DNA of 64,000 bases from an uncultured Planctomycetales bacterium (GTDB lineage Bacteria > Omnitrophota > Gorgyraeia > Zapsychrales > JANLHA01): positions 5,977-69,976 of the forward strand of contig CAYVEC010000007.1 in NCBI GenBank assembly GCA_964450385.1, read 5' to 3'. Below are positions 31,355 to 43,647 of the stretch, one piece after another. The position numbers and the translations under genes were made by a program. Under the pieces are notes generated by a model. That model was not told the origin of the DNA and made no database searches. It saw only the letters and a program-made list of their open reading frames with translations. How positions within the stretch are numbered: position 1 is the first letter of the stretch; every line of letters starts with the position of its first letter.

Positions 31355-31605
31355 AGGAGTTATGTTATTTTTACGATCCTATGAGACCATACCACGGGTG
31401 GCTGGAAAAATCAACAGGGATCTCGACGATTTTTTGTGTGCGGCTGGAGTTTTTTAACTGACCGGGAATTAAAAATGTTGACAAAGTAAACATTATGTAT
31501 ACAATTTGGTAGTAACGTCGCATCATGATTTTATCGTGTTCACGCGATGGCGGTTTGTTAACGTTTTGTTTACATCACCATAAGAGTAGGCGCAGCGAGG
31601 GCGAT

Positions 31606-32067
31606 ATGTTCGGGACAAATCTGAAGAGAATTCGACAGAAGAAAAAACTCACCCAAAAAGATTTGGCCGGTAAACTCGGGGTCTCCCGCCAGGCGATCTG
31701 TCTGTGGGAGGCGAACAAGAGAGAACTTAAAGCATCTATTCTTAAAGATCTTGCACGGATTTTAGGTGTGAAGACTGAGGAACTTATGCGGGCAGAGTCA
31801 GGCGTGAACGGTAGCCGAATCCCTTTTGAGTGGATCGGCCCTGAGTCGCGCGAGGTCTTTTTGGTGGGGGATTTTACGGGATGGAAGCCGACGATCCCGT
31901 TGCGCAGGATGAAGAATGGAATCTGGCGGCGGAATGTGACCTTGCCTCGGCCTGGCCGGTATGAATATAAGTTTGTTGTTGATGGACAGTGGCAGATCGA
32001 CCCTAAAAATGCCGATACCATCCTTAATCAATTCGGCACATTGAATTCGGTGAAGGAGTTGACCTAA
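31606..32067 (+). CDS. XRE-family HTH regulator fused to a CBM48/AMPK-beta-type glycogen-binding domain
   Basis: N-terminal LKRIRQKKKLTQKDLAGKLGVSRQAICLWEANKR (HTH_3), C-terminal ...VFLVGDFTGWKP...RYEYKFVVDGQWQIDP... (CBM48/E-set). Confidence 0.7.
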   Translation: MFGTNLKRIRQKKKLTQKDLAGKLGVSRQAICLWEANKRELKASILKDLARILGVKTEELMRAESGVNGSRIPFEWIGPESREVFLVGDFTGWKPTIPLRRMKNGIWRRNVTLPRPGRYEYKFVVDGQWQIDPKNADTILNQFGTLNSVKELT

Positions 32068-33244: not shown

Positions 33245-34606
33245 GTGGCAGAGCGAGCGAAGAAAAAGACAGCGGCAGTGAAGAAGGCTGCTACGACGAG
33301 GGTCAAGAGCGCGTCCAAAACGGTTCGGAAGTCTGAGGTCAAAAAGACGCCGGCCGCGGTAAAGGCAGCAGCCCGGCCGCGGAAGGCCTCGGCGATCGCG
33401 GCCGCGATGGCCACGGCCATTGATCGGATCGATCCGTCGAAGACGGCGGTGACGAACCCACGGCTGAACGGGATGATCCGTGAGAATCTCTCCCATGCCT
33501 CACGTGCACGCAAGGCAGTTTTCGTTGACAGCGAGATGATGCCGGACAATTATGGTTCAACAAGCATTACCCTTTTGGCGCGCGATCCCCACTGGGTCCA
33601 TGCCTATTGGGAGGTTGCTCCGGCCGCGGTGGGTGAGGCCTGCGCGCGTCTTGGTCTGGAGCAGGGGCACACTGCGTGGGTTCTGAGGATGTACGATGTG
33701 ACCCTGATCAACTTTAATGGCCAGAATGCCCATCATTGGTTCGATGTCGAGGTCGGTCCTGACGCGAATAATTGGTATGTAAATCTCTGGAGTGATCACG
33801 TCACTTATTGCGCGGAGATCGGGGTGAGGGCGCCGGACGGGCGTTTTGAAGCGCTCGCGCGTTCGAATGCTGTCACGACCCCGCGTGAATATATTTCTGC
33901 TCGGAACGAACTTGTCTGGATGGAGGTGGTGCAGCCTGAGGGTGAAGAGCCCGTGACCGCCGAACCATATGTCTACGCGAGCGGGAGCTGGGTTGAGGAT
34001 GAGGCGGAGGGGAAGGAAGGGGTTGCCGCGGCCCGACGGGGTAAGGGCCGGAGGTTCCGGATCTATCTTACGGAGGAGGACATCCGCGCCTATTATGCCC
34101 GGCTCTTTCCGCTGCTCCGGCGGATCTTGTCGCGACGGCGTCGAAAATCCACGCGAAAGACTATTGATACCGGCGATGCGGACCTGTTATTGGAAGAGCT
34201 CGAAGACATGGACCTGCCGGGGTACAGCTATTTTCGAAAAATACTCCTGGGCGCGTCCGAAGAGGCCTGGCTCCGCGGCCGCGGGCAGCGTGCCGGCCAG
34301 CCCGGCGGGGCGAGTGAGGAACTTGTTTCGTCCTGGACCACATCCCAGGCGCCGGCGAAGCCCGAGGGGTTTTTCTTCGAACTCGGGACCGAATTGATCG
34401 TTTACGGCCGGACCGAACCGGATGCCACGGTGACGTGGCACGGGCGGCCCGTGGCCCTTCGTCCCGACGGGACGTTTACCCTGCGGATGGCCCTGCCGAC
34501 CGATACGCACATTCCGTTGGATTTTAAAGCGGTTTCATTCAATCAGCGGCATCAGCGCCTGATCACGACCGCTGCTAACCGTGAGAAGACTGAATACGCG
34601 GAGTGA
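33245..34606 (+). CDS. DUF4912-like protein with N-terminal Lys/Ala-rich histone-H1-like tail
   Basis: N-terminus AKKKTAAVKKAATTRVKSASKTVRK...; core ...LLARDPHWVHAYWEV...; in operon with GH57 genes. Confidence 0.5.
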   Translation: MAERAKKKTAAVKKAATTRVKSASKTVRKSEVKKTPAAVKAAARPRKASAIAAAMATAIDRIDPSKTAVTNPRLNGMIRENLSHASRARKAVFVDSEMMPDNYGSTSITLLARDPHWVHAYWEVAPAAVGEACARLGLEQGHTAWVLRMYDVTLINFNGQNAHHWFDVEVGPDANNWYVNLWSDHVTYCAEIGVRAPDGRFEALARSNAVTTPREYISARNELVWMEVVQPEGEEPVTAEPYVYASGSWVEDEAEGKEGVAAARRGKGRRFRIYLTEEDIRAYYARLFPLLRRILSRRRRKSTRKTIDTGDADLLLEELEDMDLPGYSYFRKILLGASEEAWLRGRGQRAGQPGGASEELVSSWTTSQAPAKPEGFFFELGTELIVYGRTEPDATVTWHGRPVALRPDGTFTLRMALPTDTHIPLDFKAVSFNQRHQRLITTAANREKTEYAE

Positions 34607-36291: not shown

Positions 36292-37719
36292 ATGAACGGG
36301 ATGCTGACGAACGGCCTGCCGGATATTTTTTTCACCGATGACGATGCCGCACGGCTGAGGCCGAACGCCGATTACGCGGCCTTCTCGAATCTCCGGCTTG
36401 CCGACGTTCAGGCGGCCTTCGGGATCGCGCTCCACATGCATCAGCCCACGATCCCCGCCGGCGGAGGGGCCCTTCATGAGGCGGCCCTGATCTCGAATCT
36501 GAAACACATGATGGACCATCAGGGGATCGGCGACAATCACAATGCCCCGGTCTTTCTTCATTGTTATTACCGGATGGGTGAGATTATTCCTGATCTTGTG
36601 GCCCGAGGCAGGAATCCGCGGGTCATGCTTGATTATTCAGGGAACCTCTTGTGGGGGATCCCGCAGATGGGAGAGACGGCTGCGGTCGAGACCCTGCGCC
36701 GGGTGACGTGCGACAAGAAATATTTTACCTATGTGGAGTGGCTCGGCACGATGTGGTCGCATGCGGTCGCGACCTCGACGCCGATCCCGGACCTTCGTCT
36801 TCATATCATGGCCTGGCGCCGGCATTTTGCCGCGCTGTTCGGCGAGGAGGCGGTGCGCCGGGTGAAAGGGTTCTCTCCGCCCGAGATGCATCTGCCGATC
36901 CATCCGGATCAGTGTTATGAATATATCAAGGCCTTAAAAGAGGCGGGATATGAATGGATGCTCGTTCAGGAGCACACGATCGAGAATGTGGATGGCGCCG
37001 GGATCCGCCGGCCGCATCTGCCGCATCGGCTGATCGCGAAGAATTCCTCCGGCGAGACCCAGGAGATCGTGGTCCTCATCAAGACGCAGGGGTCGGATAC
37101 GAAACTCGTGGCCCAGATGCAGCCCTATGCCGAGGCCAAGGGCCAGGTCCGGGAGGCCTATGCCGGGATCGATCTGCCCCGGATGGTCACCCAGATCGGT
37201 GACGGAGAGAACGGCGGCGTGATGATGAATGAGTTCCCCAGGGACTATCCGCGGGCCTTTGAAGAGGTCGGCCGGTCCGGGGTCGTGGCCATGAACGGAT
37301 CGGAATATCTCGATCATCTAAAAAAGGCAGGGGCCCGGGTTCAGGATTTTATTTCAGTTCAGCCCGTGGCCCAGCATCGCGTCTGGCACGAGATCGACGG
37401 TCATTATGGCCCCGGGGCCGCGGACGCGGCGATCGATCGGATCCGTCAGCGCGATCAGGGGTTTAATTTAGATCGTGCGTCGTGGACCTCCGACCGGAAC
37501 TGGGTCGCAGGTTATCAGGGCGTCTTGGGGCCGATCAACGCCCTGAGCGCCGCCTTTCATGCCCGTTATGACGGCAAGGCCGATGTCCGGTCAAGCGACT
37601 ATCAGCAGGCGCTCCTGTATCTTTTATTATCCCAGACGAGCTGTTTTCGGTATTGGGGCGAGGGGGCTTGGACGGATTATGCCAAGGAATTATGCCGCCG
37701 CGGCATGATTTTTTGCTGA
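36292..37719 (+). CDS. GH57-family-like alpha-glucan-active protein (HxHQP region)
   Basis: LHMHQP motif (GH57 region I); 475 aa; family call tentative. Confidence 0.5.
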   Translation: MNGMLTNGLPDIFFTDDDAARLRPNADYAAFSNLRLADVQAAFGIALHMHQPTIPAGGGALHEAALISNLKHMMDHQGIGDNHNAPVFLHCYYRMGEIIPDLVARGRNPRVMLDYSGNLLWGIPQMGETAAVETLRRVTCDKKYFTYVEWLGTMWSHAVATSTPIPDLRLHIMAWRRHFAALFGEEAVRRVKGFSPPEMHLPIHPDQCYEYIKALKEAGYEWMLVQEHTIENVDGAGIRRPHLPHRLIAKNSSGETQEIVVLIKTQGSDTKLVAQMQPYAEAKGQVREAYAGIDLPRMVTQIGDGENGGVMMNEFPRDYPRAFEEVGRSGVVAMNGSEYLDHLKKAGARVQDFISVQPVAQHRVWHEIDGHYGPGAADAAIDRIRQRDQGFNLDRASWTSDRNWVAGYQGVLGPINALSAAFHARYDGKADVRSSDYQQALLYLLLSQTSCFRYWGEGAWTDYAKELCRRGMIFC

Positions 37720-37917
37720 TTTTTTTATCCCTTCTGAAAATTTTTATATAAAATCCACAAACCATTGTGTTTTATGGGGTTATGCCTTCAAGAAAAGTTT
37801 GCGAAAGCGCTTTCTTTCATATATACTTTATAAGTACTAAATACTGATATTTGGAAGCCTTTGTGTGCCGCATTTCTCTACTCTTTTCAAATTTTATATC
37901 AAACGAAGGAGACAGGA

Positions 37918-40900
37918 ATGGTTTTGAGCCAGTACAAACAACGTCGGGGGTGTGTTTGTCGTGTGATCTCAGCGCTTCTTGTGGTTATCTTCTCTTCAAG
38001 TTTGATCCTTCCTCCATCCGTCGTTCAGGCTCAAATCATTCCAACATTGCCGCCGCCCGGGACCATGGTCATGGCGAGTCCGCATTTTGTTCCGGTCCTT
38101 TTAAAAGGGATTCAACCCGATCCGCAGAATCCGCTGCAATTCACCTTTTTTTTCAATACCGGTGATGTGAAGGAAAGCGACGAGGCCCTCCGGGCCGATA
38201 TCCTGCGGCTTATCCGATATTTTATGGCCGCGCTCACCGTGCCCGAGGATCAACTCTGGGTCAACCTCTCGCCGTATGAGGCGGGCCGGATCGTCTCCGA
38301 CTCCTTAGGCGCGACCGAGATGGGGATCGATCTCTTGGCGCAGGACTATATGTTGAAACAGCTCACCGCCAGCCTTTTATATCCAGAGAATGAACTCGGT
38401 CAGAAGTTCTGGAAGCGCGTTCAGCAGCAGGCACAGGCTCGGTTCGGCCGGTCCGATATTTCGCTTGAGGTTTTAAATAAGGTGTGGATCACGCCGAATG
38501 AGGCGGTTGTCTACGAACATAATGGCGCTGCGTATGTGGTGAAAAGCAGCCTGAAGGTTTTGTTGGAACAGGATTACATGGGCTTGGAGGCGAATTCATT
38601 ACAAGGGTCAGGGCCCAACGGGTCGTTGTCGAACGAAGGCCAGGCGATGTCCCCCGAGATGGTCTCCATTATAAAGGAAATCGTGATCCCTGAGATCGAG
38701 CGGGAGATCAATCAGGGCGAGACCTTTGCCCAGCTCCGTCAGGTCTATCAGTCGATGATCTTAGCGACCTGGTTTAAATTGAACCTTCGGCAGACCCTCC
38801 TGGGGCAGGTTTACGCGGATCAGCAGAAGGTGAAGGGAATTGACCTGGCGGATCCAGCGGCCCCGGAGGAGGTCTACAACCGCTATCTCGAGGGATTTCA
38901 AAAGGGCGTTTATGAATTTATCCGGGAGGATTATGACGAGGCCACGCATCGGGTGATCCCCAGGAAATATTTTTCAGGTGGTGTTGTTGTGCCGAAGGAT
39001 TTTAATCCTAAACGGATCACGGGCGAGCCTGCCACATTGTCTCCTGCCGACCGGGCGGTTGTTCGAGCGGGGCTGGCGTCCAACAATGGCGGAGACGGTA
39101 GCGCTCGGGTCGGGCTTGTTGAAAATGGAAATCCAGAGAGCCTTGAGGCGGCGAGGAGGCCAAAGGGCACAGACGGCGCGATGATCGCGTCACGGGTTGA
39201 TCTTACGATGCTAAATCCGCGAACCGAGAGTTCGGCGGTTGACCGGGCGCTCGTTCGGGCCGGGGGTGTCGTGGCCGGGGTCACCGCCTATGATGACCAG
39301 GGCCGGATCGCGGCGGCCCCGGTGTTAGTCGGCGATGATATTCAACAGAAGATGCAGGGCACGGCGATCATGATCGATGTCTCGATCGATCAAGGCGGCA
39401 ATATTCGACACCGATTGCCGGATGGTTTTAAATATTCTCATAGCACGCCCGCTGTAAAGAACCCGAATGGCCAGATCACCGAAGGGGTTCCGAATATGCT
39501 AGCGGCCATGGGTCAGCTCGCCACCCCGTATCTTTCCGAGGCGCGACAGCCGTATTTGATCGCCCTCATCAAGATGATCCAGGCCGTGCGTGACGGTCGG
39601 GAATTTTCAGCTGATGATGCGGTCCTGCGCACGGGATTAAAAAAAGGGTTCCGGTTCCTCGCGGGTGAGAATCTGGATGAGCAGGGCCTCTCACCGGAAG
39701 AGCTGGACCGAAAGATCCGCCAGGGCTTTGAACCGATCGCTGAGGGGCTACGGCGCGGGGCGACGTTGACGATTGGCGTGCCCGCCGAGATCCTCCAGGG
39801 GGAACGACGGTTCGGGATCACGCCGGTGATCGTTCAAGATCTTCAAGAACGATTCGGAGACGAGATCCAATTTAATGTGGAGCGCGGCGGCGGTGCCTTA
39901 AGCGAGATCAGCGATGGTGAATTTCCGTCGAGCGTTAATATGGTGTCTGCAGCCGGGGCTTGGAACAGCGATATTGTCTTAAAGATTAAGCAGCCTTTGT
40001 CAAATGAGCTTCACCGATTTCGCGAAGACGGAGTGATTTTTACCTATTATCATTTGGAGAACCGTTCGATCGCCGAGTCAGGATTAAAGGAGGCGCTCGT
40101 GGGCGCCAGGTCGTGTGCGATCGCCTATGAATCGGTGCGTGATGAGGCAGGCGGAACCCCGCTATTAAATCCGATGTCCCATATCGCCGGATGGCTTGCC
40201 TCGATGCGGTATGCCGTGTATCAGGGGCTGATCCGTGAGGGTTACGACCTGTTTAATGAGAGCGGGGTTCTTCGGTCTGAGGCCGTTAGTGAGATCAATC
40301 GCCGGCTCAAACCGATCATTGATTTTATTGCGGAAGGGGATCATTTTGACCGGCTTAAACGCCATGAATTGGTGATCACGCAAGACGTCCTCGCCGAGGC
40401 TGGTATCCCTCGTGATATTGGAGAGGTGGTGTTCCTCGGTGCGGGTCATGTGGGCCGAGAGGCTGCCCATATGTTTGTCCTGTTAGGTGGCATAAAGATG
40501 ACTGTCACCGAGACGAACCCGGCCCGTCAGGCCTCCTTGGCTGAAGACCTAAACAAGGTTGGAGATCGGGTCGCCCGTGATCACGGGATGCTGTCCCAAC
40601 AGTTCGAACTTGTGAGCGGGCCGATCCGTGTGGGGGCAGAGGATGATGTTCTTGCGTTCTATTTAAAAAATCGTGATAGCGCGGACCCCGCCCAATATAT
40701 CCTTGAAGTTGTGCCTCATGGCCGACGGGAGGGTCAATTTATTTTTAAATACGCTCTTCATCGTGTTAATGGTCACGCAACGGAGTGGAGATTGTCGAAG
40801 GAAGGGGCAGAGACTGCGACGGACATGTTCGGTATTGTAAGCCATGGGACCGATGAGGAACGGGACGCGCTGGCTGCGAGCTGGCCGCAGATCATTGATG

Positions 40901-43647
40901 AATTGGAACAGGCGAATGGGGGCAGGGTTCAAGTCCCGAGCGCTCGTGATGCCGGGATGATTAGCGCTCGGATCGGGCAGAAACAGGATATGAGTCTCCG
41001 CTTCGATGATCCTGTTTTGAATAAATTGATGAGGCGGGTCATCTCAGATAAAAGTGGTTTTGTGGTTTCGGATGTCTCGCTTGAGGCTATGCTGTCAGAG
41101 CTTGATCAAGACGGGCAGATCGCGCTCTTTCGTGGGGGGTTAGGGTTTTTGGCCGGAGAGACCTTCGGGGCGTATCGGAACGGGATCGGTGTCATGCCCT
41201 TGTACCATCAAAATTACAAGGGAAAACAAATTGATTGGCGTCATGAGAAGGGAATTCATGTCGTTACTGTTGATGGCAAAGAGTTAAAGTTGGCGGTTGA
41301 ACTGGCAGGGAAGACATATGAAACGACTGTTTTTTGGGTGAATCGAAAAGGCACTCCGGTCTTTTTGTTCGAGAATAAGGAGATCTTTCATCAGTTGTAT
41401 CCAGATCCGATGACCGGGGTCGAACGCATGCGTCAGTACGCGTTTTTGGGTAAGGCGTATGTAGCGCTGATGAATGCCTTGGAACTCAGGCCTGATATTT
41501 TGCGTCTTAATGAGGCTCAGCTGATGTTTGTTCAGCGCGCTATTGAGCTAGATCGTGCTGATAAAGGCGCCGACAGTGTGTTTGGTGGAACGCGGACGGT
41601 GATGACGAATCACACTCCAGAGAAGGCCGCATTGCCGAGGTTTTCACGGTACGTTGAAGGGGCGGGGCGGATGTGGTATCCCTTAGAAAAAGTGACGGGG
41701 ACCGATATGGTCTCATCTGATATGTTCGCCTCAGACGGCCAGATTAATGCCGCTGAATGGTTGGGACGGCGGTCGGTCTTGGTGACCGCGGTTTCAGAGG
41801 AACACGCGGAGGTGACGAAGCGTTTTGTCCTGCCGCAGTTGAGCGATCATATCACGGGGATCCAGAATGGATCTGATCCCGACGAGTGGCAGTCACCGGA
41901 ATTGAACGCCTTGATGAAGAAGGTCGGCCTTGAAGGTGTCACGGGTGAGGATCTGTGGCGTTTTCGGCAACAGCAGAAGACGCGGTTAAATGAGTGGCTG
42001 GCTCGTCACGGGGCCGGGGGATTTCATGATGTCAATCGTCCGTTATTTTCAGCAGTACGGCGATTGGTAACGTATAAAGCACAGGGGATCCTTGTTCCCT
42101 TGGTTGAGTGGATCACGGGAGATCCCGGGCGTGAGTATACGTTGCCGGATGGGAGCCGTCGCAATGGATTGGGTGCGAATCTCTTGGTCGGCGGTCCGGT
42201 AGCGGACACGATGGGCGAAGAATGGGCCCGGGAATTTAGGACATTGGCTCAGGATGAGCGGTTTCGAGGGAAGCTGGTTTTTGTAGAAGGGACCGGAAAA
42301 GAGATGATGCAGCTCGCGGCCTCTGCTCCGGACGGGTGGCTCGTGATGCCGCGTCTGACTCGTGAGGCGTCGGGGACCGGAGATCAACGGGCGGGGTTTA
42401 ATGGTGCGATCGTGATCGCGACCGCCACCGGCGGGCCGCTGGCGTGGGTGGAGGATGGAAAGAATGGCTGGCTGGTGGATCCGCTTGGGACCACAACGAC
42501 AAAGACACAAGACGGTGAATATGAACTCGGTGATGCGTTCAATCGCGTTGCCCTCATTTTGGATAATCCCGATCATCCGGAACACGCGGCTATCGTGGCC
42601 CGGTTTGAGCGTGAGGCTCAGGGGGTTTTTGCTGATCGGATGAGCCGGATCGTGATGATGTACCGGGCGTATGAGGCGGGGAGAGATAAGCGGATCTTGG
42701 GATTTATGAAGGGATCGTTTCAATCAGCCATGGAGAAGGTCTCCATTGACCGGATGATGAGTGACTATCAACGGTTGTTCCGTGAGGCGTTGAAACATGG
42801 GCAGACGAGCGACACCTTGGGCGCGGCGTCGTATGAGATCCAGCAGATCTCAGCGACTGAGGATGAGGAAAGGATCCGTCGATCTATTCAGCTGCTCAAG
42901 GATAGTTATGCGGGGCTCGCGGTCGATGGGAATCTTTCTCAATTGTTTAAAGGCCGGGGCCCGATTCGGGGAGTGATCCGCGATATTGCCGGGCAACCGC
43001 AAGTACAGGGCGGCGAAGAGGAGGCGCGGGTTGTGGTTGTGGCTGCGTGGCTCGTGGCCCATTTTGATCTTCGGTTATCAGCGGATGAATTCCGTATGCT
43101 GGTCCGCGGGATTATGACCCGTCAGGATCTTGGCGCCTTGATACGTTTTTCTCCTGAGATGCAGCGGCATTTTTATGAAGATGCCGAGAGCCTGCTCAAC
43201 GAGGTCATCCCCGGCGAGGAGAACATTGTCAAGGTTGAGGAGGGTTTCACGAGAGGAGAATCTCTGGCTCATATTTTGACACGGCAACGATTGGCCCGGT
43301 TGACATTGAAGCGGGCCTGGGCGAAGTTGCGGGCTCGCCACGAAACGCGTTCTGAAGGCACAACGCTGACCGAGCGATCGATTGATATTGACGTGCCTGC
43401 GGAGGGTCAGAAAACGGCCCCGGGTGGTATCGACCTTAATTCTGCGTATCTGGATCTGAAGATCGAACGCGATGGGCAGGGGGTTCCGCTCCCCATGTCT
43501 GAGCAGCCGGTGGATCTGATCCAACAGATCGAGGGGTTTGCCCCGGTCCTGATTGATATGACGCCGATCCCTGGGGTCTTGATGCTTTTAGGTATGGACC
43601 AGCAGGGCTCAGGAACGGTGGTGGGGCCGATGGCCAGGGCAGAGTAA
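37918..43647 (+). CDS. Giant (~1909 aa) secreted or membrane-anchored multidomain protein: unknown N-terminal region, AlaDH/PNT-family NAD(P)-binding module, GT35 alpha-glucan-phosphorylase-like domain, ~400-aa C-terminal extension
   Basis: Signal/anchor MVLSQ...ALLVVIFSSSLILPPSVVQAQ. AlaDH/PNT matches: IGVPAEIL...FGITP, FTYYHLE, IAYESV, LLNPMSHIAGWL, VVFLGAGHVGREAA. GT35 motifs: GGLGFLAGE, GVMPLY, TNHTPEKAALPRFS, EASGTGDQRAGFNG. Confidence 0.75.
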   Translation: MVLSQYKQRRGCVCRVISALLVVIFSSSLILPPSVVQAQIIPTLPPPGTMVMASPHFVPVLLKGIQPDPQNPLQFTFFFNTGDVKESDEALRADILRLIRYFMAALTVPEDQLWVNLSPYEAGRIVSDSLGATEMGIDLLAQDYMLKQLTASLLYPENELGQKFWKRVQQQAQARFGRSDISLEVLNKVWITPNEAVVYEHNGAAYVVKSSLKVLLEQDYMGLEANSLQGSGPNGSLSNEGQAMSPEMVSIIKEIVIPEIEREINQGETFAQLRQVYQSMILATWFKLNLRQTLLGQVYADQQKVKGIDLADPAAPEEVYNRYLEGFQKGVYEFIREDYDEATHRVIPRKYFSGGVVVPKDFNPKRITGEPATLSPADRAVVRAGLASNNGGDGSARVGLVENGNPESLEAARRPKGTDGAMIASRVDLTMLNPRTESSAVDRALVRAGGVVAGVTAYDDQGRIAAAPVLVGDDIQQKMQGTAIMIDVSIDQGGNIRHRLPDGFKYSHSTPAVKNPNGQITEGVPNMLAAMGQLATPYLSEARQPYLIALIKMIQAVRDGREFSADDAVLRTGLKKGFRFLAGENLDEQGLSPEELDRKIRQGFEPIAEGLRRGATLTIGVPAEILQGERRFGITPVIVQDLQERFGDEIQFNVERGGGALSEISDGEFPSSVNMVSAAGAWNSDIVLKIKQPLSNELHRFREDGVIFTYYHLENRSIAESGLKEALVGARSCAIAYESVRDEAGGTPLLNPMSHIAGWLASMRYAVYQGLIREGYDLFNESGVLRSEAVSEINRRLKPIIDFIAEGDHFDRLKRHELVITQDVLAEAGIPRDIGEVVFLGAGHVGREAAHMFVLLGGIKMTVTETNPARQASLAEDLNKVGDRVARDHGMLSQQFELVSGPIRVGAEDDVLAFYLKNRDSADPAQYILEVVPHGRREGQFIFKYALHRVNGHATEWRLSKEGAETATDMFGIVSHGTDEERDALAASWPQIIDELEQANGGRVQVPSARDAGMISARIGQKQDMSLRFDDPVLNKLMRRVISDKSGFVVSDVSLEAMLSELDQDGQIALFRGGLGFLAGETFGAYRNGIGVMPLYHQNYKGKQIDWRHEKGIHVVTVDGKELKLAVELAGKTYETTVFWVNRKGTPVFLFENKEIFHQLYPDPMTGVERMRQYAFLGKAYVALMNALELRPDILRLNEAQLMFVQRAIELDRADKGADSVFGGTRTVMTNHTPEKAALPRFSRYVEGAGRMWYPLEKVTGTDMVSSDMFASDGQINAAEWLGRRSVLVTAVSEEHAEVTKRFVLPQLSDHITGIQNGSDPDEWQSPELNALMKKVGLEGVTGEDLWRFRQQQKTRLNEWLARHGAGGFHDVNRPLFSAVRRLVTYKAQGILVPLVEWITGDPGREYTLPDGSRRNGLGANLLVGGPVADTMGEEWAREFRTLAQDERFRGKLVFVEGTGKEMMQLAASAPDGWLVMPRLTREASGTGDQRAGFNGAIVIATATGGPLAWVEDGKNGWLVDPLGTTTTKTQDGEYELGDAFNRVALILDNPDHPEHAAIVARFEREAQGVFADRMSRIVMMYRAYEAGRDKRILGFMKGSFQSAMEKVSIDRMMSDYQRLFREALKHGQTSDTLGAASYEIQQISATEDEERIRRSIQLLKDSYAGLAVDGNLSQLFKGRGPIRGVIRDIAGQPQVQGGEEEARVVVVAAWLVAHFDLRLSADEFRMLVRGIMTRQDLGALIRFSPEMQRHFYEDAESLLNEVIPGEENIVKVEEGFTRGESLAHILTRQRLARLTLKRAWAKLRARHETRSEGTTLTERSIDIDVPAEGQKTAPGGIDLNSAYLDLKIERDGQGVPLPMSEQPVDLIQQIEGFAPVLIDMTPIPGVLMLLGMDQQGSGTVVGPMARAE

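Follow-up and report, generated by a model that had tools for sequence, protein, structure and literature searches.

This locus raises the question of why one protein should combine, behind an apparent signal peptide, a module of the alanine dehydrogenase/transhydrogenase type (AlaDH/PNT) and a domain resembling the alpha-glucan phosphorylases of glycosyltransferase family 35 (GT35), in a gene that lies next to a block of glycogen genes. The gene occupies positions 37918–43647 of the 64,000-nucleotide stretch of Omnitrophota DNA analysed here (the window, 1–64000; contig CAYVEC010000007.1 of assembly GCA_964450385.1), on the + strand, as do all features of the window to which coordinates are given below, and it encodes 1909 amino acid residues. 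The open reading frame (ORF) and its modules had been recognized at these coordinates in a preliminary description made from the letters of the DNA, and rightly so, as the frame is open over the whole interval. We consider it probable that the product is a modular protein in which a head and a tail, shared by a whole family, enclose interchangeable cassettes (the cargo), and that the pairing of AlaDH with GT35 resulted from cargo shuffling.

With the whole protein as query, 8000 candidates were scored and at least 2666 protein clusters matched at E ≤ 1e-5; the matches with a named source all came from Candidatus Omnitrophica/Omnitrophota, except for one from an unclassified hydrothermal-vent metagenome. 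The 120 best matches were mapped onto the query, and nearly all of them align to residues 1 to ~356, at 43–55% identity, and to residues ~1836–1895, at ~35–60% identity, with nothing between. The interior of these proteins contains Pfam domains of sugar metabolism (phosphoglucomutase, UDP-glucose pyrophosphorylase, PGK, TIM, PGI, GAPDH, enolase, aldolase, FBPase and hexokinase), and also isocitrate lyase, malate synthase, PEPCK, NDK, receiver, GGDEF and sigma-54 activator domains and HEAT repeats. A pattern scan of the GTDB species-representative genomes, made with the alignment of the heads, identified at least 594 confirmed head copies, the best 80 of which are in metagenome-assembled genomes (MAGs) titled Omnitrophota/Omnitrophica, ‘uncultured Planctomycetales’, ‘bacterium’ or ‘Elulimicrobium’; several copies occur per genome, with six in one MAG among these best 80. 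The query protein is a singleton cluster, from one contig, and a search of the window for further heads or tails found none besides those of the 1909-residue gene. We also considered whether head–tail genes are generally arranged in tandem, and rejected this, as a tail lies ≤3 kb upstream of a head at only 3 of 62 loci. Since the head and the tail are the only parts common to all family members, they would specify a shared fate, either retention or assembly in the envelope or onward delivery, and the interior cassettes would be interchangeable passengers that act independently.

The head, residues 39–356 (38032–38985), carries the motifs NPLxFxF, WVNLSPYE, DLLAQDYxLKQ, EVNEGxxFAxLRQ and YFSGG, and ~60 of its positions are invariant among 34 sequences. 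It had no match in Pfam or NCBIfam, a Pfam search with the 34 heads at permissive thresholds returned only scattered noise, and a fold search gave no significant match. The ~590 N-terminal residues had been described as free of recognizable motifs; nevertheless, residues 39–356 are a conserved domain and residues 422–577 belong to the C-terminal half of the AlaDH fold. Between the two is a low-complexity linker (residues 357–421, 38986–39180) that terminates in a degenerate copy, DGAMI (residues 419–423, 39172–39186), of the motif D-x-A-M-L. This motif occurs 73 times in the 120 best members, against 3.2 occurrences expected from residue shuffles, usually directly downstream of the head, in the joints between cargo domains or ahead of the tail, with flanks that are not conserved, and might serve for processing or for docking.

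The tail, residues 1836–1895 (43423–43602), reads GGIDLN…RDGxGVPLP…QP…EGFxPVxI…TP…LLG in the query, and the family consensus of ~58 residues is GGI(D/N)(L/F)NPxLLDLQIKRDGxGVPLPxxQQPxxxMxIEGFxPVIINxTPxxNLPxLLG, with a nearly invariant Gly/Pro framework; Gly1836, Gly1837, Gly1873 and Pro1876 of the query fall in invariant or nearly invariant columns among 120 tails. It is predicted to be an extended coil and not a globular domain, and its AlphaFold2 model is a coil with a pTM of 0.34. Models of sorting signals and dockerins did not match the whole protein at E ≤ 1, the tail at E ≤ 10 or, in NCBIfam, 55 tails of the family at E ≤ 5; NCBIfam contains models for the C-terminal domain of the type IX secretion system (T9SS CTD) and for the PEP-CTERM, LPXTG and GlyGly-CTERM sorting signals. 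The tail may be an extended docking or sorting peptide. Pfam and NCBIfam searches with the head, the tail, the spacer between AlaDH and GT35-like modules and the region after the GT35-like domain, each in isolation, gave nothing at E ≤ 10, and a search for the motifs GGIDLN and WVNLSPYE in the searchable literature found no description of the shared head or tail. The head–cargo–tail family is apparently undescribed, and was seen here only in Omnitrophota-type genomes.

The first cassette is an AlaDH module. Pfam AlaDh_PNT_N (PF05222) matched residues 620–757 (5.9e-20) and AlaDh_PNT_C (PF01262) matched with 3.4e-13, its best stretch at residues 465–572, both above gathering scores, which bears out the module proposed in the preliminary description. 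What had escaped notice there is its order: of the two AlaDh_PNT_C stretches, the better-scoring one is upstream of the N-domain, and the query does not have the canonical colinear succession of N-domain, NAD domain and C-terminal helices. NCBIfam alaDH (TIGR00518) matched with 1.2e-40 in three stretches, scoring 139.6 bits and thus not reaching the equivalog cut-off of 391.85, and the AlaDHs of the Protein Data Bank (PDB), which match the query at ~1e-23, align in three out-of-order pieces (query residues 618–766, 834–883 and 465–563 to AlaDH residues 2–146, 167–212 and 242–329, respectively). As a canonical ruler we used P0121, a relative of 360 residues (homologues are designated by P numbers): its residues 208–325 align to query residues 422–553 and its residues 1–213 to query residues 617–885, and the two matches are complementary and do not overlap. 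The N-half is ~34% identical to this ruler.

On these alignments, we conclude that the AlaDH module is circularly permuted. Piece 1 (residues 422–577, 39181–39648, corresponding approximately to canonical residues 208–345) contains the Rossmann strands from beta3 onward and the C-terminal part of the substrate domain, with the catalytic Asp491 (IDVSIDQGG). It is followed by a connector of ~40 residues (578–616, 39649–39765) that bridges the native C- and N-termini of the fold, and by piece 2 (residues 617–895, 39766–40602, canonical residues 1–213), which comprises the N-domain with Arg631, Lys691 and His712, a hinge with a clade-specific insertion of ~45 residues, the GAGHVG motif (841–846) and, after beta2, Glu865 as the acidic residue of NAD specificity. 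The breakpoint is thus near canonical residue 210, between strands beta2 and beta3. All four AlaDH catalytic residues are retained, as Arg631, Lys691, His712 and Asp491 correspond to Arg15, Lys74, His95 and Asp269 in the alignment to P0121 and the PDB AlaDHs, and we infer that the cassette has NAD-dependent dehydrogenase activity toward alanine or 2-oxoacids; its predicted reaction would be pyruvate + NH3 + NADH ⇌ L-alanine + NAD+.

In an exhaustive HMMER search of 1.84 billion representatives, the permuted order recurred in two more head–tail proteins, P0130 and P0240. The three modules align colinearly at ~28% identity and have the ~45-residue hinge insertion in common, and therefore the permutation arose a single time and was kept thereafter. 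In both P0130 and P0240, the permuted AlaDH is next to a glutamate dehydrogenase, and in P0130 also to a 2-hydroxyacid dehydrogenase; neither protein contains glucan enzymes. Another head–tail protein, P0120, has an ordinary colinear AlaDH. We found no description of a circularly permuted alanine dehydrogenase in the searchable literature. The same HMMER search retrieved large proteins that have no family head and start with a signal-peptide-like N-terminus: P0125, P0176 and P0220, with a canonical AlaDH almost directly after it, P0229 and P0245, with a canonical AlaDH further inside, and P0246; P0125 also contains a glutamate dehydrogenase. AlaDH behind signal-like N-termini is consequently not restricted to the head–tail family, since P0125, P0176, P0220, P0229 and P0245 show it without the head.

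A spacer of 117 residues (896–1012, 40603–40953), with no domain match and with a junction unique to the query, separates the AlaDH module from the second cassette, a GT35-like GT-B domain at residues 1013–1660 (40954–42897). NCBIfam TIGR02094 matched with 1.6e-23, at 83.3 bits below its cut-off of 191.7, and Pfam recognized Glyco_transf_5 at residues 1092–1298 (3.3e-9); Pfam gave no match of the query to Phosphorylase (PF00343) or DUF3417, and PF00343 was sub-threshold in P0002 and P0008. A clade profile, made from 14 homologues with head, GT-B domain and tail, was run against the PDB and gave 51 matches, the best being 9l6i, ‘alpha-glucan family phosphorylase’ (9.4e-23, profile positions 462–907 to chain residues 124–623, covering both Rossmann halves). 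The 48 best of these matches are all alpha-glucan, glycogen or maltodextrin phosphorylases, and none of the 51 is a glycogen synthase. The GT35 likeness, already proposed, is thereby supported by TIGR02094 and by 9l6i, even though the Phosphorylase and DUF3417 models are silent.

The query has the motifs GGLG (1073–1076), TNHTPEK (1230–1236), IQNGSD (1315), RRLVTYK (1381–1387) and EASGTGDQR (1483–1491), and the alignment of the profile to the PDB chains superposes GGLG, HTP, RRxxxYK and EASGTS, so that the lysine of EASGTSGEK that binds pyridoxal 5'-phosphate (PLP) falls on the arginine of EASGTxxxR. This residue, Arg1491, is at the position of the PLP Schiff-base lysine (Lys680 in muscle phosphorylase) and is encoded by CGG (42388–42390), two substitutions away from any Lys codon. 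Across the 23 homologues that bear the motif, the position is Arg in 22 and Ala in one, so that the Lys-to-Arg change is clade-wide; a base-call error was considered and rejected in view of the CGG codon and of the conservation of Arg across the clade. The replacement noticed in the preliminary description is thus confirmed. The equivalents of the phosphate-site residues Arg569 and Lys574, the glucosyl-binding His (HTP) and the GGLG loop are kept in the query, in columns that are invariant in the alignment, and GGLG, HT, NG, RR..YK and T-R-EASGTS…NG are invariant among 14 homologues that are 36–56% identical to the reference (one pair 83%). GGLG is directly preceded by a basic residue. The GT35-like domain is the only recognized cargo in P0004–P0007, P0009 and P0011–P0013 and is accompanied by UDP-glucose pyrophosphorylase (UGPase) in P0008; the region that follows it in the query (residues 1661–1825, 42898–43392) is common only to the closest GT35-like homologues, P0002–P0007.

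What the loss of the lysine means can be read in two ways. In one, the domain is a dead glucan-binding or scaffold pseudoenzyme, as the preliminary description had suggested, and the protein merely tethers its other activities to alpha-glucan. GT35 catalysis depends on the 5'-phosphate of PLP, and the absence of the Schiff-base lysine, the score of 83 bits against the TIGR02094 cut-off of 191.7 and the silence of Pfam Phosphorylase all agree with such a role, which is possible but not favoured here. The invariance of the active-site motifs among homologues as diverged as these is what selection would produce, and the Arg that replaces the lysine is itself conserved and not a random replacement; although no proof of catalysis, the invariant columns speak for an active site under selection rather than for an inert remnant, and we consider the pseudoenzyme unlikely. 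In the other reading, the cassette is predicted to act on the chain ends of alpha-1,4-glucan without covalently bound PLP, and, where the PLP 5'-phosphate would otherwise sit, Arg1491 and the basic residue beside GGLG may bind a ligand that carries a phosphate. The clade could work without PLP, bind PLP non-covalently, use NDP-sugars or be inactive. No PLP-independent GT35 was among the papers listed by a literature search; a review has proposed that PLP was recruited into an NDP-sugar-dependent proto-GT35 (PMC11046441). The reported lack of PLP biosynthesis in this phylum does not mean that the family avoids PLP enzymes, because some head–tail members, such as P0060, carry domains of PLP-dependent enzymes (PF00291); presumably these bacteria use PLP salvage.

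Upstream of the gene are five others, coding for a regulator with helix-turn-helix (HTH) and CBM48 domains, a GT4/GT5 synthase-like protein, a DUF4912 protein, a GH57 branching enzyme and a 475-residue ORF; the gaps between them are 1–62 bp and none has a signal peptide. The neighbours listed in the preliminary description (regulator, glycogen synthase, DUF4912 and two GH57) were thus largely right, with the exception of the second GH57, as the 475-residue ORF matches that family only sub-threshold (E = 0.011). Between this block and the 1909-residue gene we identified a terminator-like hairpin at the end of the 475-residue ORF (37683–37715, a 15-pair stem followed by a T-run), a 198-bp AT-rich spacer and a sigma-70-like promoter match, TTGCGA-17-TATACT (37799–37827, 9 of 12 positions, a consensus match only). 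The gene, which had been described as the last of a glycogen-type operon, is in fact adjacent to the block in conserved synteny; nevertheless, with these elements intervening after tightly packed genes that lack signal peptides, it probably forms its own transcription unit.

In GCA_022711395.1 the order is synthase, DUF4912, GH57, a 478-residue ORF, a head–tail gene of 1570 residues, P0006 (head, GT35-like domain and tail, 1293 residues), S15, PNPase and FtsK, and the flanking genes are 72–84% identical to those of the window (58% for DUF4912). This synteny indicates that a GT35-like head–tail gene beside the glycogen block is conserved and that the content of the locus differs: one gene of 1909 residues here, two genes of 1570 and 1293 residues with other cargo in the relative (L001, 5167–13882). 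Amid conserved synteny, the head–tail locus is hypervariable, and the AlaDH–GT35 pairing would have arisen there, beside the glycogen operon, by cargo shuffling and not from catalytic coupling. A simple fusion of the relative's two tandem head–tail genes was considered as its origin and rejected, as the upstream gene of 1570 residues has no similarity to AlaDH.

Catalytic coupling is what the preliminary description had proposed, namely a new dedicated enzyme in which the NAD(P) chemistry of AlaDH/PNT would be coupled to the GT35-like domain in a new step of alpha-glucan metabolism, encoded by the last gene of a glycogen operon. Both modules are indeed on one polypeptide, and the gene adjoins the regulator, synthase, DUF4912 and GH57 genes, a location in which a GT35-like head–tail gene is conserved. 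However, the syntenic P0006 and its close relatives P0004, P0005 and P0007 have the GT35-like domain without any AlaDH module, the permuted AlaDH travels elsewhere (P0130, P0240) with amino-acid and 2-oxoacid dehydrogenases, and its catalytic residues are those for pyruvate/alanine chemistry. The hairpin and the promoter-like site set the gene apart from an operon whose proteins lack signal peptides, and the 117 residues between the two modules are not conserved. The proposal finds no support in this picture of freely recombined cargo, and we regard a bifunctional enzyme as highly unlikely.

The pairing could also be an artefact, in which a head–tail gene with AlaDH cargo and one with GT35-like cargo were misjoined in the assembly or a frameshift was missed. 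The junction at residues ~896–1012 is unique to the query, itself a singleton cluster from one contig, and a relative has two head–tail genes at the same locus. Nevertheless, the frame runs uninterrupted for 5.7 kb from ATG 37918, which is preceded by the Shine-Dalgarno sequence AAGGAG, to the stop codon at 43645–43647 (an alternative upstream start, TTG 37861, gives the longest ORF, and the N-termini of homologues agree with ATG 37918), and the large modules are uniform in GC content, GC content at third codon positions (GC3) and codon usage, in which they resemble neighbouring genes. Furthermore, a wrong join at the repeated head or tail would exchange cargo; it would not remove a tail, intergenic DNA and a head at non-homologous points. 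The flanking genes are colinear with those of related genomes, and the relative's upstream head–tail gene has no similarity to AlaDH. By all these features of the sequence, this is a real, single continuous gene with no sign of frameshift or misjoin, and an artefact is barely credible.

The modular protein that we favour would be exported. Its N-terminus (residues 1–38, 37918–38031) has a basic n-region (Lys7, Arg9, Arg10 and Arg15), a hydrophobic core at residues 16–31, with a Kyte-Doolittle mean of 2.59 over 15 residues, and then PPSVVQA followed by Gln, with a predicted signal peptidase I site Val36-Gln37-Ala38 before Gln39. When 114 family members were anchored on the head motif, a hydrophobic core of this kind was present in 108, a net-positive n-region in 106 and an x-x-A-(Q/E) site in 94. 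The cleavable signal or anchor of the preliminary description is thus recovered as a design of the whole family and, by the usual rules, is a cleaved Sec signal peptide; the precursor would be targeted to the Sec translocon and cut after Ala38. The remark made there that export of such domains would be unusual also stands, as the cargo needs cytoplasmic cofactors.

This conflict is the first of several points that weigh against the modular, exported protein. AlaDH requires NAD(H), and the PGK, hexokinase, receiver, sigma-54-activator and GGDEF cargo of the relatives requires ATP, GTP or cytoplasmic partners, all of which are missing from a classical periplasm. The glycogen enzymes encoded upstream lack signal peptides, so their product would be out of reach of an exported GT35-like domain. 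The signal peptide was judged heuristically, by its n-, h- and c-region features only. As for the cassettes, the permuted AlaDHs of P0130 and P0240 lack His95 and the acidic NAD residue, so that, by sequence, this lineage may be drifting toward non-catalytic roles; the junction of AlaDH to GT35 has no second example; and the GT35-like domain may be inactive, because we know of no GT35 enzyme that works without PLP.

The localization conflict could be solved in three ways: by a non-classical compartment, by delivery into host or prey cells, or by cytoplasmic cargo behind a mis-read anchor. The last of these amounts to a membrane-tethered metabolon, in which the N-terminal hydrophobic segment is an uncleaved anchor or does not translocate the chain, and the head and the tail organize cytoplasmic enzymes along the inner surface of the membrane or on a granule, with access to NAD, ATP and glycogen. 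It is a serious rival to export, and we take it to be possible rather than probable. The census of family cargo, consisting mostly of enzymes and signalling domains that require cytoplasmic cofactors or partners, is in its favour, as are the cytoplasmic glycogen-making proteins encoded next door, and a possible misprediction of localization was raised by West-Roberts et al. for the glycolytic domains of giant Omnitrophota proteins. On the other side, by the positive-inside rule the basic n-region would stay in the cytoplasm and the remainder would be outside, the core is followed in most members by a helix-breaking PP and an AxA site before Gln, as in cleaved signal peptides, and no second hydrophobic segment would bring the chain back into the cytoplasm: in the query, the hydropathy threshold is exceeded only at residues 11–38 and in a marginal stretch from residue 1873. 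Glycolytic and sugar-metabolism domains behind signal peptides were noted earlier in giant Omnitrophota proteins, and both preprints met the same localization paradox (10.1101/2023.11.21.568195; 10.64898/2026.06.07.730766). We give most weight to the reading based on export, because it is the one that rests on the only direct evidence in the sequence.

Beyond the modular protein itself, a bolder and rather doubtful extension can be formulated. The head and the tail would be an undescribed Omnitrophota sorting or delivery system that moves dozens of otherwise cytoplasmic enzymes of central metabolism and signalling to a nucleotide-containing envelope compartment or, effector-like, into host or prey cells, and the Lys-to-Arg GT35 clade would be truly PLP-independent, possibly NDP-sugar-dependent. 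The hypervariable loci in conserved synteny and the many paralogues per genome would fit an effector-like repertoire. If this extension were true, the clade would be a living counterpart of the hypothesized ‘proto-GT35’ (PMC11046441).

Each part of the protein matters for a different reason. The phylum is reported to lack PLP biosynthesis, and its GT35-like clade, which keeps every active-site motif but the PLP lysine, is a natural test of whether GT35 chemistry can do without covalent PLP; the clade is also relevant to the proposal of an NDP-sugar origin for GT35. The conserved natural AlaDH permutant is a clean case for studies of protein evolution and protein engineering. With regard to localization, the family, with at least 594 copies in species-representative genomes, combines a conserved Sec-type signal peptide with domains of glycolysis, gluconeogenesis, glycogen metabolism and signalling and with amino-acid dehydrogenases. 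Either much of Omnitrophota central metabolism runs outside the cytoplasm or is delivered into hosts, or the signal-peptide-like segment does something unexpected; both outcomes bear on the lifestyle of the ultra-small, probably host-dependent Omnitrophota, and the head and the tail are concrete experimental handles.

Some observations concern the neighbouring genes and the window. The regulator gene (31525–32067) codes for a small fusion of a Cro/C1-type HTH with a CBM48/AMPK-type glycogen-binding domain, with a 1-bp gap to the glycogen block downstream, and its product is a candidate glucan-sensing transcription regulator. The DUF4912 protein (33245–34606), syntenic in GCA_022711395.1 at 58% identity, has a highly basic, Ala/Lys-rich N-terminus, and the 475-residue ORF (36292–37719) is syntenic there at 75% identity. 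GC skew is positive in every 2-kb bin of the window, with a cumulative skew that rises monotonically, and the genes examined between 26.8 and 49.4 kb are all on the + strand, except for a PMT-like glycosyltransferase. This pattern is compatible with a leading-strand segment that includes neither an origin nor a terminus.

In comparison with known systems, each enzyme cassette is a variant of a well-known family that departs from it in at least one defining feature, the PLP lysine and the cut-offs in the case of GT35, colinearity and the cut-off in the case of AlaDH. With the GT35 alpha-glucan family phosphorylases (TIGR02094 type; PDB 9l6i/20yr) and, more distantly, the glycogen and maltodextrin phosphorylases, the GT35-like domain shares the GT-B fold of two Rossmann halves and the motifs GGLG, HTP, NG, RRxxxYK and EASGT(S/G). 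It differs from them in the Arg that takes the place of the PLP Lys throughout the Omnitrophota clade, in the basic residue before GGLG, in an N-half that scores as Glyco_transf_5, with no DUF3417 or Phosphorylase match and with scores under the cut-offs, and in being embedded between a signal peptide and head on one side and a tail on the other. The AlaDH module resembles L-alanine dehydrogenase (TIGR00518; PDB 2vhw, 2eez, 1pjb and 8hye) in both AlaDh_PNT domains, the four catalytic residues, GxGxxG and the acidic beta2 residue, and is set apart from it by the permutation, the ~45-residue hinge insertion, a score under the cut-off and its position as a cassette inside a signal-peptide-bearing protein of 1909 residues.

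As for the architecture as a whole, the giant proteins of Omnitrophota (Archaeovorins and relatives) are from the same phylum, are signal-peptide-bearing polypeptides and include the Pfam domains starch synthase (PF08323), GT1, PGM and receiver (10.1101/2023.11.21.568195; 10.64898/2026.06.07.730766). These reports concern proteins of at least 10,000 residues, and the head, the GGIDLN tail, the permuted AlaDH and the Lys-to-Arg GT35 clade are absent from their descriptions, a distinction drawn from the descriptions only. The cargo proteins of T9SS CTD, PEP-CTERM/exosortase and LPXTG/sortase systems and the dockerin-tagged enzymes of cellulosomes share with the head–tail family a Sec signal, variable enzymes and a short conserved module at the C-terminus, and likewise occur as many paralogues per genome. 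The tail described here, in contrast, has no transmembrane-plus-basic cluster, no LPXTG and no predicted Ig-like fold, and no curated sorting-signal or dockerin model matches the query or the 55 tails searched. Moreover, the head–tail proteins have in addition a large common N-terminal domain, and their cargo consists of enzymes of central metabolism and not of extracellular hydrolases.

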